Assembly (NCBI RefSeq): GCF_003334315.1
Contig: NZ_QOWR01000034.1
Length of the DNA: 49,379 nt
Strand: one strand, 5' to 3'
From: Escherichia coli
GTDB taxonomy: Bacteria; Pseudomonadota; Gammaproteobacteria; Enterobacterales; Enterobacteriaceae
Made by a program: the position numbers and the translations under genes. The notes beneath the pieces were generated by a model. It made no database searches and had not been told where the DNA came from. It saw only the letters and a list, made by a program, of their open reading frames with translations. Below are positions 3,815 through 42,903 of this stretch, in pieces (within the stretch, counting starts at the first letter, position 1; every line of letters starts with the position of its first letter).

Positions 3815-3912
3815 GCCTGATGCGCTATGCTTATCAGGCCTACATAGTCCCTGCAATATATTGAATTAGCAAGGTTTTGTAGGCCGGATAAGGCGTTCAC
3901 GCCGCATCCGGC
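3815..3912. repeat. BIME: two inverted REP elements between convergent torZ and cmoB
   Basis: GCCTGATGCGCTATGCTTATCAGGCCTACA (3815-3843) and GTAGGCCGGATAAGGCGTTCACGCCGCATCCGGC (3879-3912) match the REP consensus. Confidence 0.8.
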
Positions 3913-6127: not shown

Positions 6128-6946
6128 TCAGAAAAGAGAAGATTGCTGTGGAATAGCCGGAACTGCTCCGATCTCTGGAAGCGTTTTACGTAAGTCTTCC
6201 CACAGGGTATGTACCAGTTCCGGTGCCTGGGCAATGTCTGGCGTATGTAAAAAAAGATAAGGCGTAGTGGTCTGATGCCACTGCGCTAATTTTTGTAACC
6301 AGACCTGAAATAATTCCCGGTTTTGCGTCATATCATCACTACCGATAAAACGGATCAGCGGATTTGTCGCCGTCAGTACAGCATGTACCGGAACTTTAGG
6401 TTTTTTTCGTTGAGCGTCGCGAATAGCTTCACTGTGTGGACGTGCTGCATGAACCGGGCGGCTGTCTAAAATCACCCGATTAACGCCGCGCTGATGTAAA
6501 CCGCGATTAAGCGTTTGTTCCTCTTCTCCTTTGGCGAAAAACTGTGGATGGCGGACTTCCACGCCATAATTAAATTCGCCAGGAAGAGAATCGAGAAAAT
6601 GCCAAAGCGCAGGCAGCTCCCGTGGGCCGAATGTGGCAGGCAGTTGCAGCCAGTATTGCCCAATGCGCGGAGCCAACGGTGACATGCGGGTCAAAAATTC
6701 AGTCACTAAATCATCGCAATGCCGTAATGCTGCCTGATGCGAAATGGTCGCCGGAAACTTAAAACAGAAGCGGAAGTCATCTGTGGTCTGCTCACGCCAG
6801 CGCAGGACAACCTCGGGTTTCGGCAGGGCGTAAAGCGTGGTGTTGCCCTCCACGCAGTTAAAGTGGCGGGCATACTCTTCAAGGCTGGTGATCCCCAACC
6901 GCACCCATTTAGGATGCGACCATTGCGGTAGACCGATGTAAATCAT
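6128..6946 (-). CDS. yecE: DUF72-family protein of unknown function (YecE)
   Basis: 272-aa ORF; start overlaps the yecD stop (ATGA at 6943-6946). Confidence 0.88.
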
Positions 6947-13999: not shown

Positions 14000-14320
14000 G
14001 ATTGGTCGCTCGCGCCGCATCCGAAATTGGCAGTGTGCCTGATGCGACGCTATTCGCGTCTTATCCGGCCTACCAGAGATAGCGAACCGTAGCTCGGATA
14101 AGGCGCTCGCGACGCATCCGACATTGGCAGTGTGCCTGATGCGACGCTATTCGCGTCTTATCCGGCCTACGAGAGATAGCGAACCGTAGGTCAGATAAGG
14201 CGCTCGCACCGCATCCGACATTGGCAGTGTGCCTGATGCGACGCTGTTCGCGTCTTATCAGGCCAGCCAGAGATAGCGAACCGTAGGTCGGATAAGGCGC
14301 TCGCGCCGCATCCGACAAAT
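14000..14320. repeat. Tandem BIME cluster: three 97-bp units made of alternating REP palindromes
   Basis: GCATCCGA recurs at 14017, 14114, 14211 and 14308 (exact 97-bp period); each unit holds GCCTGATGCGACGCT...GCGTCTTATC(C/A)GGCC and CGGATAAGGCGCTCGCG REP motifs. Confidence 0.85.
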
Positions 14321-35241: not shown

Positions 35242-35328
35242 AACATTTAAGCTGATGACCACCGCGCTTTTTATTGACCATTTTGCACGCAAACTGGAAA
35301 ACCTGGCGTCGTCATCTATTCTTAAAGG

Positions 35329-35431
35329 GCAAGGCAACTAAGCCTGCATTAATGCCAACTTTTAGCGCACGGCTCTCTCCCAAGAGCCATTTCCCTGGAC
35401 CGAATACAGGAATCGTGTTCGGTCTCTTTTT
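35329..35431 (+). ncRNA. sdsR: Small regulatory RNA SdsR (RyeB), sigma-S dependent
   Basis: Recalled SdsR sequence matches (GCAAGGCAACTAAGCCTGCATTAATGCC...CGGTCTCTTTTT). A sigma-S-type -10 (TCTATTCTT, 35315-35323) sits upstream and a GC stem plus U-run ends at about 35431. Confidence 0.75.
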
Positions 35432-35564
35432 ATCTGTTAAAAGCCAGAAGCATTTCCTTCGCTGACTTTATAGTCAACCATAACACACACTCTACTGTCT
35501 GAGTCCAGCGTTTTTTAACATTCTTGTTAAGATTATGTGATCTTTAGCGCGGAGGAAAATATTG

Positions 35565-38317: not shown

Positions 38318-38390
38318 ATACCACTGGCAAAAAAACAGGCGCGCAGTTTAGCATAAACGCTCCGGCGCAGGCACGCCGGAGCAGTGGGCA

Positions 38391-41024
38391 TTATTTGGGA
38401 AGCGCAGTACCCCATTCACGCCACTCTTTCGGTTCACTTTCCTGCAACAGGAAGTGCTTGCCTTCCTGGGCTTTCGGTGCCAGTGGCGTCCCCGGAGGCG
38501 TGGCGAAGGCGATGCCGCCACGGATAAACTGGTTAAAGGTGCCGGTTTTCACTACGCCGCCCGTCAGACCAAAGTCCAGACTGTAACCCGATGCCAACCA
38601 GAAGACGGAATTGTTACGCACCAGGTGTTGATAGCGTTTACTGATGCGCATCGCAATCATCACGCGATCTGACAATGTCCCCAGCGTCATTCCGGTAACC
38701 GTACCTACTTCCAGACCACGGAACAGCACAGGCGTACCGATGCCTAACGAACCGGCTTCCGGCGCTTCAACAATAATGCTTAAGCCATCCAGGTAACGCG
38801 AATCAGTAATGGTGGCCTCTTGTAATTCAAAGTCGCGGCGAGGATTGCCCCGGCCTGGTTCGACGTTGATATACGGCTGGAGGATAGTATCAAGATGCTC
38901 AACGCCAGCTGCCGAAATTTGCGGTGTGACCACTGAGAAGCGCGTACCACCGCGAGCAAAGGTCTGGACATATTCCGGATAGAGCACCGCCTTTGCCTGT
39001 ACTTCATTGCGCGCGGTAATCAGATCCAGCGTCTGGATTTGTCCGATATCAATACCGAGATAGCGAATTGGCATCCCGACCGCCAGTTTTCCGGCATCGA
39101 AAGCGTGAAGCGTAATCTGCCCACCAACCGCACGGGCCGCTGTTTCGGAAGCATACAGAATACGTTTGTCGCCTTTACGCTGACTGGCGCTGGCACCACT
39201 GAGGTTATCGAAGCTAATAGCCCCTTTTAATGCTCTGGAGAGCGGGGATGCCTGTACGGTCAGGCCACTACCATTCAGCTGAACTTTCGCCCCGCCTTCT
39301 GCCCAGAACACGCTATTGCTGGTCAGAAGGTTGCGATACTCCGGCTTAATATGCAGATCGATATCAAACGCGTTAGCTCGCGGACGCACGGTAATAACTT
39401 CACCAACTTCAAATTTACGGTAGAGCACTACCGAACCTGCCTGCACATCCGGCAGCGTCTCTGCACTCAAACTCACGGTTGTGGTGGGTAAATCGCTAAG
39501 GCTGTTCTCCAGCGCTTTTTCCAGATTGGCATACAGTGGATAGCTGGCTTTCATCTCGCCTTTATCGCCCGGCAGAATACGTATCCCGCCGTTAATCCAT
39601 TCTGAGGCGCTGGCACCGAGAAACTCAACGCCATCCAGCCCCACCTTCACGTCGACACGGCTGTTGACGACAAATTTGCTATCGCCTTTTACCAGTTCTC
39701 GATGCTGAGGCTCGATGGCGACGGTAAAGGTGACGCCTTTGCTGGTGAGTTTACGATCGATAACCTGGCCTACCTGCACGCCGTGAAGAATGAGCGGCTG
39801 ACCCGCATCAATACCGTAACTTTCCGGCGCGGTCAGGGTCAGCGTCAGAACATCAGGTTCATGCAGCAGTGCTTTTTCGCCTGGCACAACAACGAACTCT
39901 TTGCGTGGCTCGCCATCGCCGGGTACCAACTCGAAGGTTTTGCCAGTCAGCAGGGCGCTGAGATTGGCATCGCTAAGGGATAATTTCGGATTACGTAATT
40001 CGATGCGGGTATTTTCACGAAGCAGGGTAACGACGCTGGGATCAACTGTCATTTCCCCAGTGACTTTACCACCAGGATTTAAATCCAGTTTAGTTAGCTG
40101 TCCGACTTCCAGTCCCTGATACATTAATGGCGTCGAGTCGGCGGTTAATCCTGCCCCACTCGGCAGTTCCAGTTTTATTATTACGCCACGCTGGCTGTGG
40201 GCCAGATCTTCATACAGACCAAAGGTATCTTCCGCCTCGGCAGGTTTCGACTCTTCAGGTGAATCGAAGGCAATCGCACCGTTAACCAGTGCCGCCAGAC
40301 TTTCCAGTTTCACCTTCGCGCCACTGATACTGACATTGGCATCAACGCCGGAAACGTTCCAGAAACGGCTACCTTTTTTCACCAGATCGGTAAAACGCCG
40401 CTCGATCAGGACATCAATCACCACGCCTTGCTTGTTGGGATTGATGGCATAGTCGTAGACTTTTCCCACAGGGATCTTGCGGAAATAGACCAATGAACCG
40501 CTGTTCAGCGAACCGAGATCGGGGGCTTGCAGGTGGATCATCAGATCGCCATTGTCCAGTCGATATTTCGGTTGGGTATCGAGTGCGACAAAGTGATCCT
40601 GCTCTTTACCTTTACCTGGCATCATGCCGATATAGTTACCACCGACGAGGGCGTCCAGCCCGGAGACACCTGCCAACGATGCTTTTGGCGTCACCAGCCA
40701 GAACTGAGTCTCTTCGCGCAGCGCATCTTTCATATCGGACTTGATGCTGACCTTGACTTCAATCTTACGAAGATCGTCGCTGAGGCTGATATCCTGCACT
40801 GTTCCGACTTCAACGCCCTGATAACGAACAGGCGTACGGCCCGGGACAATACCATCCGCCGACATAAAGTCGATGGTGACGGTATTACCCCGGTCCTGAT
40901 AACTGTCCCAAATCAGCCAACCGGCAATCATTAGCGCGATGAACGGCAGCAGCCAGAAAGGTGAGATACGGCGTTTATTTTTAATCTGCGCTTCAGTCGT
41001 CGAAGCGGGCGTTTCCTGACTCAT
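38391..41024 (-). CDS. letB: Lipophilic envelope-spanning tunnel protein LetB (YebT), multi-MCE-domain
   Basis: Start trimmed to ATG 41024 ([13 protein letters not shown]..., N-terminal TM helix), 877 aa; long repetitive MCE-like architecture. Its 5' end overlaps the letA 3' end by 32 nt. Confidence 0.9.
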
Positions 41025-42276
41025 GTGCATCCCAAAGTAAGCGGCTGTCCAGCCATTCCACAGCAAGAATAGTCAAAATTACCGCTGCGCCGAAATAAAA
41101 CGCAGCCGGTCCCATAGTAAAAGCGAGGATCTGATCGCGATTAATCAGCGACATGGTTAAAGATATGACAAACAGGTCGAGCATCGACCAGCGACCAATC
41201 CAGGTCACCATCCGCAGTAACAGAATGCGTGTGCGTAAACCTTGCTGGCATTTAAAATGAATACTCAACAGTAAAGTGAACATGACGATCACTTTAGTAA
41301 ACGGTACCAGAATACTGGCGATAAACACGATTCCCGCAACCGCAATGTTGCTACTTGCCAGCGACATAATTCCGGAAAGAATTGTATCTTCCTGCCGTCC
41401 TCCGTTCAGATAAATGATAGAAATAGGCAACAGGTTGGCAGGTAACAACAAAACGATTGACGCTAACAGCGCCGCCCAGCATTTTTGCAAACTATGACGG
41501 CGACGCAGGCGTAGCGGGATATGGCAACGCGGGCAGCGACCACGCTGATCAGGATAGCCGGTAAAATGGCACCCAAGACAGACACGAAGTTTCTCGTCCC
41601 TACGCGTAGCGGGGCGCTGCGGATAAAATCGCTCCCACAGCTCCTCGACATTAAGATGTGACAACGTCACCGTCGTTAAAATCACCAACGCCACAAAAGA
41701 GAACAAGCCGACACCCGCCTGGATATGGGCATAATCCTGTACCTTTATAGAAGCAACGCCAATGCCGACCAGGTAGATATCCAGCATTACCCACTCTTTA
41801 AGTCGCTCAAGCATCAGCAGTACCGGACGTAAATTCATTCCCAGTCGGTTACCAAACCATAAATATGCTATGGAGGACACCAGAATGAGGGGGGCACCAA
41901 TAACGCAGAAAAAGACCATCGCCCCCGTTATCGTATCGCCCTGTTTGGTCATTTGCCAGATGCCTTGCATGACGTTGGCGTCGATACGAATACCTAACAG
42001 CCAGATATGCAACAGCGGTTCGCCCCAGGCAAACGGCATCAGCAACAGCATGGTGAAAGCCATTGCCGCCAGGCGCGTTAGCGACCAGTCGCGCCCGTCG
42101 CGAATTTTTGCCTGACAGCGCGGACAATAGGCACTCTGATGAGAATTTATCTCGGGCAGGCTAAACAGCATGTCGCATTGCGGGCAACGTTGGTAATCAC
42201 CACGCGGCAGTTCCTCGCCGATTGACCTCACTGTTATCTTTTTTGTCGGCGTAATTTGTGGTGTGTTAAGAGCCAT
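40993..42276 (-). CDS. letA: PqiA-family inner-membrane protein LetA (YebS)
   Basis: 427 aa; two duplicated modules each with a CxxC zinc-ribbon-like pair (CPQC...CPRC and CLGC...CPRC) followed by TM helices. Confidence 0.9.
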
Positions 42277-42405
42277 GACGTGCCAAATGTAATAAGAATT
42301 AACATTAATATTAACCCATGATGGGAATGATCTTGAGCATTAACGCATTTAATGCTTATTTTAATAGGCTGGCAGTTCCAGGTAAGACAACCAAGTGATT
42401 ATATA

Positions 42406-42903
42406 ATGAACAAAACAGAATTTTACGCGGATTTAAATCGCGACTTTAACGCGCTGATGGCAGGAGAAACCAGTTTTCTGGCAACGCTTGCGAACACCAG
42501 TGCGTTGTTATACGAGCGTCTCACTGACGTAAACTGGGCAGGTTTTTATTTGCTTGAGGACGATACACTGGTACTCGGACCATTTCAGGGCAAAATTGCC
42601 TGTGTCCGGATACCCGTCGGGCGCGGGGTGTGCGGCACTGCGGTTGCCCGCAATCAAGTGCAGCGTATCGAGGATGTTCACGCGTTTGACGGGCATATTG
42701 CCTGTGATGCGGCGAGTAATTCTGAAATTGTTCTGCCGCTGGTGGTGAAAAATCAGATTATTGGTGTTCTCGACATCGATAGTACCGTCTTCGGTCGCTT
42801 TACAGACGAGGACGAGCAAGGCTTACGTCAGCTTGTGGCACAGCTTGAAAAAGTGCTTGCAACGACGGATTACAAAAAATTCTTTGCGAGCGTCGCAGGA
42901 TAA
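42406..42903 (+). CDS. msrC: Free methionine-(R)-sulfoxide reductase (GAF domain)
   Basis: Start trimmed to ATG 42406 (MNKTEFYADLN...), 165 aa; active-site region CVRIPVGRGVCGTA. Confidence 0.85.
   Translation: MNKTEFYADLNRDFNALMAGETSFLATLANTSALLYERLTDVNWAGFYLLEDDTLVLGPFQGKIACVRIPVGRGVCGTAVARNQVQRIEDVHAFDGHIACDAASNSEIVLPLVVKNQIIGVLDIDSTVFGRFTDEDEQGLRQLVAQLEKVLATTDYKKFFASVAG

Follow-up and report, generated by a model that had tools for sequence, protein, structure and literature searches.

The overlapping genes at positions 38391 to 42276 of the window (the whole 49,379-nucleotide stretch of DNA that was analysed) are almost certainly the chromosomal letAB (yebST) operon of Escherichia coli, and comparison with related sequences indicates that the letA/letB overlap and the position of the letB start are ancient and jointly constrained by two coding frames. 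All of the listed letAB features are real yet already published, including the 32-nt overlap and the structures; what is added here is confirmation, together with a small comparative note on this letB start. The two genes are co-oriented in the ORF list and by direct translation:

40993..42276, minus strand: letA (yebS) coding sequence, 427 aa, inner-membrane PqiA/YebS-family lipid-loading subunit (ORF, PGAP, TIGR00155, PDB 9n8w chain A)
38391..41024, minus strand: letB (yebT) coding sequence, 877 aa from the ATG at 41024, hexameric seven-ring MCE tunnel protein (ORF, annotation, PDB)

The window is E. coli chromosome, with 100% DNA identity to several non-K-12 isolates, and the letAB region is present in 5425 of 5426 complete genomes. 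On an E. coli chromosome of identical DNA, the RefSeq/PGAP annotation places yebS and yebT at identical coordinates with the identical overlap. LetAB of E. coli K-12 (YebS/YebT; LetB is UniProt P76272) is encoded at the same locus and has identical lengths (427 and 877 aa); it shares the 32-nt overlap and the neighbours rsmF, msrC and proQ, which also adjoin letAB here, and strain-level polymorphism is the only difference. A multi-MCE gene lies immediately downstream of letA in all 80 other-species loci. Nothing that we found opposed the letAB identity, and the ORFs match LetA and LetB fully; domain searches, solved structures and the literature agree that the gene names given by an earlier sequence-only reading were right.

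As that reading had also noted, msrC (42406-42903, plus strand) is divergent from letA, 129 bp upstream of it, and the promoters of both genes presumably lie in this gap. Beyond the other end of the operon, a hairpin is the probable letAB terminator, ahead of rsmF:

42277..42405, no strand assigned: letA-msrC divergent intergenic region, 129 bp, with conserved blocks TAAAATA, GCATTAAATGC and CTCAAG
38358..38383, minus strand: GC-rich hairpin of 11 pairs, 8 of them G-C, 8 nt past the letB stop and followed by UUUAU (terminator scan, fold)

The hairpin is present in 10/10 aligned genera, with 81% of cells paired and three pairs that change on both sides; the covariation support is modest, as the observed values are equalled or exceeded in 27-31 of 500 shuffles, and is partly limited by the MAFFT alignment. 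A simple sigma-70 scan found no consensus sigma-70 promoter in the letA-msrC intergenic region, and its three matches inside letA were rejected as chance level (3 found versus 3.7 expected). Separately, in a genomic SELEX paper the yebR/yebS/yebT region is listed with a sigma-factor peak. A scan of the whole window against Rfam returned no family in or adjoining letAB.

LetA belongs to the PqiA/YebS family (TIGR00155), scoring 700.3 bits (cut-off 260.35) over profile positions 1-403 of 403, and it matches PDB 9n8w chain A over its full length. The internal duplication proposed for it is evident both from two tandem PF04403 PqiA domains, at residues 66-217 (E=1.2e-38) and 263-418 (E=8.4e-43), and from the alignment of its halves with each other (28% identity, E=3e-15). 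Ahead of each transmembrane module stands the expected CxxC...CxxC element, with the four CxxC motifs at C31/C34, C51/C54, C233/C236 and C248/C251:

42082..42207, minus strand: LetA N-terminal zinc ribbon, residues 24-65 (CxxC positions, weak Pfam matches; limits from PMC13017536)
41623..42081, minus strand: LetA TMD-N, first PqiA domain, residues 66-218 (Pfam PF04403; limits from PMC13017536)
41494..41622, minus strand: LetA C-terminal zinc ribbon, residues 219-261 (CxxC positions, alignment A1, PMC13017536)
41023..41493, minus strand: LetA TMD-C, second PqiA domain, with periplasmic pocket and polar network, residues 262-418 (Pfam PF04403, half-half alignment, PMC13017536)

Pfam zinc-ribbon matches at residues 29-58 are weak. 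The ribbon cysteines are invariant or nearly invariant in alignment A1, with C233, C236, C248 and C251 invariant there. The spacing within each tetracysteine set is n=16 in the N-terminal ribbon and n=11 in the C-terminal one; the family pattern is CxxC-Xn-CxxC with n = 11-18 (PMC13017536). Zinc binding itself is published: ICP-MS gave about two Zn per LetA, and the metal-binding cysteines are intolerant of mutation (PMC13017536).

Domain parsing of LetB likewise bore out a single N-terminal anchor followed by MCE repeats. Kyte-Doolittle analysis shows one hydrophobic segment, at about residues 20-41 (maximum 2.01 over residues 20-38), preceded by a cytoplasmic tail (residues 1-19) that varies among families, and Pfam counts seven MlaD/MCE domains (E 5e-19 to 1.5e-4):

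40902..40967, minus strand: LetB N-terminal TM anchor, about residues 20-41 (Kyte-Doolittle; PMC13017536)
40614..40892, minus strand: LetB MCE domain 1, residues 45-137 (Pfam MlaD, E=4.7e-19)
40365..40538, minus strand: LetB MCE domain 2, residues 163-220 (Pfam MlaD, E=6.9e-8)
39966..40187, minus strand: LetB MCE domain 3, residues 280-353 (Pfam MlaD, E=9.2e-10)
39660..39845, minus strand: LetB MCE domain 4, residues 394-455 (Pfam MlaD, E=4.8e-7)
39258..39485, minus strand: LetB MCE domain 5, residues 514-589 (Pfam MlaD, E=1.5e-4)
38853..39119, minus strand: LetB MCE domain 6, residues 636-724 (Pfam MlaD, E=2.3e-12)
38601..38786, minus strand: LetB MCE domain 7, residues 747-808 (Pfam MlaD, E=9.7e-11)

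PDB 9n8w_B aligns to all of LetB (residues 1-877), and the 6v0c group of entries to residues 46-877; the LetB structures matched also include 6v0c-6v0j and 6kz3/6kz4. By its seven MCE domains and single N-terminal TM anchor, with the remainder of the chain periplasmic, LetB is classed from its sequence as a LetB-type (type IV) multi-MCE tunnel protein. The number of MCE domains is 6, 7 or 8 in LetB and 3 in PqiB (PMC13017536).

The sequence-only reading placed this locus among the less understood, a judgement that is now outdated. Santarossa et al. (Nature 2026; PMC13017536) described zinc-binding ribbons, a pseudo-dimeric, tetraspanin-like LetA, one LetA for six LetB, and the 32-bp letA/letB overlap, and cryo-EM structures of the LetAB complex are available (PDB 9n8w/9n8x), which both proteins encoded here match from end to end. 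LetB is a homohexamer whose seven stacked MCE rings form a hydrophobic tunnel, about 225 Å long, that extends from the inner membrane towards the outer one. The hexamer is anchored by one TM helix per protomer, and these six N-terminal helices are resolved in 9n8w (PMC13017536). A single LetA, a pseudo-dimer of two zinc-ribbon-plus-tetraspanin-like TM modules, sits under ring 1 and keeps it open, and phospholipid entry to the tunnel in vivo requires LetA, as does 32P-lipid crosslinking within the tunnel (PMC13017536). The purified complex is enriched in phosphatidylethanolamine, and the authors propose, by inference, an energy source and a transport direction from inner to outer membrane, that is, export (PMC13017536). 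LetA has a transporter fold unrelated to known families. The significance of LetAB, one of three E. coli MCE phospholipid-trafficking systems, has thus already been realised in the literature through structures, a mutational scan and a transport model.

Because the domains of LetA carry the Pfam name PqiA, and equivalog models for PqiA and PqiB match LetA (E = 3.5e-62) and LetB (E = 3.7e-142), the locus might be read as a second copy of the paraquat-inducible PqiAB and not as a distinct Let system. We regard this as scarcely credible: LetA scores 210.8 against a cut-off of 562 for the PqiA equivalog (NF011683), LetB scores 474.8 against 525 for the PqiB equivalog (NF008070), and these sub-threshold scores, with the domain count, refute it. 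In addition, the gene next after letB is rsmF and not a pqiC-like lipoprotein gene, and the true pqiABC is located elsewhere in the K-12 genome. On sequence grounds, then, LetA and LetB are paralogs of PqiA and PqiB. PqiA shares with LetA the two zinc-ribbon-plus-TMD modules and a C-terminal RLxWD motif, PqiB is likewise a multi-MCE protein with an N-terminal TM anchor, and the cholate/LSB phenotypes of PqiABC are redundant with those of LetAB. However, PqiB has 3 MCE domains and a needle whereas LetB has 7, and the Pqi operon includes a third gene, pqiC, for an outer-membrane lipoprotein. Its first two genes, in contrast to the overlapping letA and letB, stand 4 nt apart, and pqiB is preceded by a strong GAGGAG SD; pqiA, unlike letA, has no ATG at the RLxWD motif. 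A more distant likeness is to MlaFEDB, in which MlaD, a single-MCE protein, also forms a hexameric ring over an inner-membrane lipid-handling subunit and which, like LetAB, traffics phospholipids between membranes. Mla relies on the ABC transporter MlaFE together with MlaC, a soluble shuttle, whereas LetAB has a continuous tunnel and no ATPase gene, and LetA is unrelated to ABC permeases.

The layout of the letA/letB junction is as follows:

40993..41024, minus strand: letA/letB overlap, 32 nt (ORFs, PMC13017536, 80-species comparison)
41029..41034, minus strand: TGGGAT, the Trp415 and Asp416 codons of LetA, an SD-like element 5 nt before the letB ATG

The shared stretch, ATGAGTCAGGAAACGCCCGCTTCGACGACTGA, is exactly 32 nt by ORF list and direct translation, and PGAP agrees. 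In the LetA frame it runs from the third base of the H418 codon through ESGNARFDD to the stop, and in the LetB frame it covers residues 1-10 and the opening two bases of codon 11 (E11); the letB ATG is therefore formed from LetA codons 418-419 (CAT GAG). The overlap is again 32 nt in 57 of the 80 species and has another length in 18 more; the lengths range from 14 to 59 nt, each leaving a remainder of 2 on division by 3, as the position of the letA stop drifts. The start codon, by contrast with the stop, is fixed: in 75 of the 80 genomes, across Enterobacterales and Pasteurellaceae, the letB ATG lies exactly 10 nt past the invariant LetA Trp415 codon. The codon at 418 reads NAT throughout (62 CAT, 12 TAT, 1 GAT), never NAC, which argues for selection to keep an ATG inside letA. 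Wobble positions within the overlap are frozen in both frames, with entropies of 0.41/0.43 bits inside it versus 1.09/1.31 bits in flanking coding sequence. In two genera the overlap has been lost and LetB is still full-length: Pectobacterium has a 2-nt gap, and Dickeya a 15-16-nt gap with its own AGGG/AGGA SD.

TGGGAT is the only SD-like element for letB, and its anti-SD duplex is weak (-4.0 kcal/mol). This weakness, together with the variability of the cytoplasmic tail, could be taken to mean that the overlap is an annotation artefact, with letB really beginning 3' of the letA stop so that the genes only abut. Such a misassignment is very improbable. From 41024 as far as codon 32, a codon within the TM helix, there is no further in-frame ATG, GTG or TTG, so letB must start at or upstream of 41024 if the anchor is kept; PGAP assigns the same start; and the Trp+10 position of the ATG in 75/80, the restriction of codon 418 to NAT and the frozen wobble positions all argue for an ancient overlap. 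Two alternative upstream starts, an ATG at 41030 and a TTG at 41066, were also rejected: conservation is lacking for the former, as GAC replaces GAT in many genera, and the sequence farther upstream codes for LetA. The overlap thus passes a check that the sequence-only reading had named as one that could refute it.

Tight translational coupling had been suggested from the overlap. The overlap stands, but coupling does not follow from it, given the weak SD, the length of the overlap, the 1:6 subunit ratio, a refactored construct and the loss of the overlap in Pectobacterium and Dickeya. In native E. coli gene pairs, reinitiation is reported to drop steeply with distance, and long overlaps are described as typically uncoupled (PMC10666635). 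Reinitiation alone cannot yield the 1:6 LetA:LetB ratio, which speaks against tight coupling and against the overlap being functionally required, and deep mutational scanning under cholate/LSB selection was done on a functional letAB plasmid whose ORFs had been refactored so as not to overlap (PMC13017536). Because LetB is required in six-fold excess, strict 1:1 termination-reinitiation is probably not the mode. Coupling of a facilitated-initiation type may apply, in which ribosomes ending letA would prevent the weak letB initiation site from folding and so leave it accessible. RNA folding of the junction (40975-41110, minus strand) gave no evidence of regulatory structure (-41.3 kcal/mol, z = -1.43, with 20 of 200 shuffles folding at least as well), and a full-text search returned no usable figures for the synthesis rates or copy numbers of YebS/YebT.

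A serious contender, at somewhat under even chances, is that the overlap is a neutral historical accident, in which a lost letA stop extended LetA into letB, with no role in expression, and which persists only because dual coding is hard to undo. The drift of the letA stop, the loss of the overlap in Pectobacterium and Dickeya with retention of the genes, and the activity of the refactored construct are all consistent with such an origin, and long overlaps usually arise by stop-codon loss (PMC10666635). The conserved element, however, is the start site, kept at Trp+10 throughout Enterobacterales and Pasteurellaceae, its His/Tyr codon always ends in T, and no such layout evolved in the paralogous pqiAB, which shares the C-terminal motif. 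As read from these sequences, the fixed start indicates selection for the letB start codon, which LetB needs anyway, and not for coupling. It is conceivable, though rather doubtful, that the placement of the letB start at LetA codons 418-419, from Escherichia to Haemophilus, is a selected expression device; we found no prior analysis of it as such in the searchable literature.

The comparative note on the letB start is mainly useful for re-engineering of the operon or for study of how a 1:6 ratio is obtained from overlapping cistrons. If the start placement is indeed an expression device, it could make LetB synthesis depend on letA translation, fix the LetB:LetA ratio or co-localise membrane insertion of the two proteins, and the dual-coded C-terminal tail of LetA and N-terminal tail of LetB would be constrained by that device.

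The six-frame ORF list holds two long, co-oriented minus-strand ORFs at the locus, and direct translation confirmed the C terminus of LetA, the N terminus of LetB and the stretch that they share:

40993-42276, minus strand: letA ORF, 427 aa, ATG start
38391-41066, minus strand: letB ORF, 877 aa if started at the ATG at 41024, 891 aa if started at the first possible TTG
40993-41024, minus strand: stretch shared by letA and letB, 32 nt, ATGAGTCAGGAAACGCCCGCTTCGACGACTGA

PGAP annotates yebS and yebT at identical coordinates and with the identical overlap, such that the 32-nt overlap described in the sequence-only reading is confirmed by the ORF list, direct translation and annotation alike. PGAP also places rsmF downstream of letB on the same strand and msrC, proQ and prc upstream and divergent, as had been proposed for msrC. 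Several E. coli chromosomes carry the 3.9-kb letAB region at 100% identity, and 5425 of the 5426 complete E. coli genomes have it at ≥95% identity; given this and the agreement with PGAP, the window is E. coli chromosome, and the coordinates reported earlier are exact. One complete genome lacks a match, and one E. coli genome has an additional match, on a plasmid.

To check the conservation of the overlap, as the sequence-only reading had proposed, we used an alignment of LetA homologs (32-89% identity) to fetch 80 loci from a collection of species-representative genomes, covering Escherichia, Citrobacter, Enterobacter, Erwinia, Pantoea, Yersinia, Serratia, Rahnella, Hafnia, Edwardsiella, Proteus, Providencia, Plesiomonas, Pectobacterium, Dickeya, Brenneria and Tatumella, as well as the Pasteurellaceae genera Rodentibacter, Haemophilus and Necropsobacter. 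At 75 of the 80 loci, a LetB-length ORF opens with an ATG placed exactly 10 nt past the first base of the codon for the invariant LetA Trp415 (Trp+10; pattern, TGG GAx xxx xAT G). The position of the letA stop shifts between loci, resulting in overlaps of 14 nt (1 locus), 17 nt (2), 23 nt (1), 26 nt (5), 29 nt (2), 32 nt (57), 41 nt (3), 44 nt (1), 50 nt (1) and 59 nt (2). LetA codon 418 is always NAT (62 CAT, 12 TAT and 1 GAT), never the synonymous NAC. Across the 57 loci with a 32-nt overlap, third-position entropy inside the overlap was 0.41 bits in the LetA frame, compared to 1.09 in the upstream flank, and 0.43 bits in the LetB frame, compared to 1.31 in the downstream flank, a drop that is characteristic of two translated frames. 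No ATG, GTG or TTG occurs in the E. coli sequence downstream of 41024 before the codons of the LetB transmembrane helix are reached, and the upstream ATG at 41030, considered as an alternative letB start, is lost in many genera, where GAC replaces GAT. With a fixed ATG, frozen third positions, no later start and an unconserved 41030, the explanation that the letB start codon is misassigned therefore fails, and the overlap is genuine.

Five of the 80 loci depart from the Trp+10 ATG (L-numbers denote individual loci). The overlap is lost in two Pectobacterium loci (L051 and L062; gap of 2 nt) and two Dickeya loci (L058 and L060; gap of 15-16 nt, with letB preceded by its own AGGG/AGGA Shine-Dalgarno [SD] sequence). 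LetA ends early in these soft-rot genera, as WDND* or WDNTDVE* (~6150-6260 in each locus), while Brenneria (L052) retains a 50-nt overlap. In Tatumella morbirosei (L056, ~6204-6243), the Trp+10 ATG is ATA and other ATGs lie close by; possible substitutes are at Trp+4 (38-nt overlap) and Trp+31 (11-nt overlap). The LetB ORF of a Mixta sp. (L039, 6211-7845) is 543 aa long versus ~877 aa elsewhere, which may reflect a frameshift, pseudogene or assembly error. LetB homologs of 772-780 aa, ~100 aa below the E. coli length, occur in Moellerella, Proteus and Providencia (L063, L064 and L068-L070); this would fit a six-MCE variant such as PMC13017536 mentions. The paralogous pqiA has the RLxWD motif in common with letA but lacks an ATG at that position, and pqiA and pqiB are separated by a 4-nt gap with a GAGGAG SD instead of overlapping.

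Domain searches bore out the predicted MCE and PqiA homology. LetB (877 aa) has a single hydrophobic segment (~residues 20-41), consistent with the proposed lone N-terminal anchor, and seven separate Pfam MlaD (MCE) matches (E values of 4.7e-19 to 1.5e-4):

Residues 45-137: MCE domain
Residues 163-220: MCE domain
Residues 280-353: MCE domain
Residues 394-455: MCE domain
Residues 514-589: MCE domain
Residues 636-724: MCE domain
Residues 747-808: MCE domain

The suggested internal duplication of LetA, with a CxxC...CxxC element in each half, also holds: two Pfam PqiA domains (residues 66-217 and 263-418) lie in halves that are 28% identical (E=3e-15), and four CxxC motifs occur at 31/34, 51/54, 233/236 and 248/251. 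LetA belongs to the NCBIfam PqiA/YebS family (700 bits; cut-off, 260), and both proteins fall short of the equivalog cut-offs for PqiA and PqiB; they are paralogs of Pqi and not Pqi itself.

Full-length LetA and LetB match solved structures of the LetAB complex (9n8w/9n8x), and LetB also matches 6v0c-6v0j, 6kz3/6kz4 and 6vci. Santarossa et al. (Nature 2026; PMC13017536) describe LetA as a pair of modules in which a cytoplasmic zinc ribbon (CXXC-Xn-CXXC) precedes a transmembrane domain whose tetraspanin/claudin-like fold has no relation to known transporters; each LetA binds ~2 Zn, and its metal-binding cysteines are mutation intolerant. One LetA joins six LetB, with seven MCE rings forming a ~225-Å tunnel. 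Phospholipid crosslinking within the LetB tunnel in vivo is LetA dependent, and the purified complex is enriched in phosphatidylethanolamine. The authors propose stepwise export, leaving direction and energy coupling open. They also give the letA-letB overlap as 32 bp and recoded the two genes as non-overlapping ORFs (pBEL2071) for a deep mutational scan under cholate and LSB selection (PMC13017536); the non-overlapping layout is therefore functional. Given these structures and this mechanism, the description of the system as poorly understood is outdated.

The divergent layout of proQ-msrC and letA-letB-rsmF is kept in most Enterobacterales loci, although for roughly a dozen of these no downstream rsmF was detected. 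The seven Pasteurellaceae loci yielded no match to msrC or rsmF, and proQ is directly divergent from letA in six of them; we infer that the proQ-letAB linkage predates the insertion or loss of msrC. Rfam matches in the window include a pair of antisense sRNAs at 35291-35435, ~3 kb from letAB, with SraC/RyeA on the minus strand (175 bits) and SdsR/RyeB on the plus strand (114 bits), along with naRNA4 (14189-14264) and ES036 (3836-3878). Both intergenic gaps hold conserved elements:

38383-38358, minus strand: GC-rich hairpin 8 nt after the letB stop, 11 pairs (8 G-C), then UUUAU
42277-42405 (letA-msrC gap, 129 bp): invariant TAAAATA; near-palindrome GCATTAAATGC; CTCAAG; CATGAGTTAAGATA, the last ~35 nt before the letA ATG

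Each of the 10 aligned Enterobacteriaceae genera has a hairpin in this position, with three pairs changed on both sides, although support for its conservation is modest (81% of cells paired; observed values reached in 27-31 of 500 shuffles). Beyond it in the letB-rsmF gap (38318-38390) come an invariant TGCTAnACT, similar to an extended -10 element, and a T-run immediately ahead of the rsmF start; the gap looks like a predicted terminator followed by a predicted promoter. The letA-msrC blocks, which are conserved in 11 Enterobacteriaceae genera, are candidates for shared promoter or operator elements; a sigma-70 consensus scan of this gap found no match, and no SD is evident before letA.

On balance, the evidence leans against the tight translational coupling suggested for the overlap. 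The sole SD-like element before letB is TGGGAT, in the Trp415-Asp416 codons (-4.0 kcal/mol against the anti-SD), and folding of the junction RNA is no more stable than that of shuffled sequence (z = -1.43). As six LetB are needed per LetA, termination-reinitiation alone cannot suffice, and reinitiation in native E. coli gene pairs is reported to drop steeply with distance (PMC10666635). Loss of the overlap in Pectobacterium and Dickeya and the function of pBEL2071 also count against tight coupling. On the best reading, ribosomes translating letA would help hold a weak internal letB initiation site accessible, with most LetB made by independent initiation. Long overlaps reportedly originate, as a rule, from stop-codon loss without coupling (PMC10666635), and it is about as likely that this overlap is a neutral "frozen accident"; across the loci compared, what is conserved is the letB start site itself.

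Apart from the coupling, which is unproven, and the outdated view of the system, the sequence-only interpretation is correct. All of its elements are already in print, and letAB is a textbook system with a solved structure; the new material is only the comparative account of a letB start held at a fixed position and of the constraint from dual coding.
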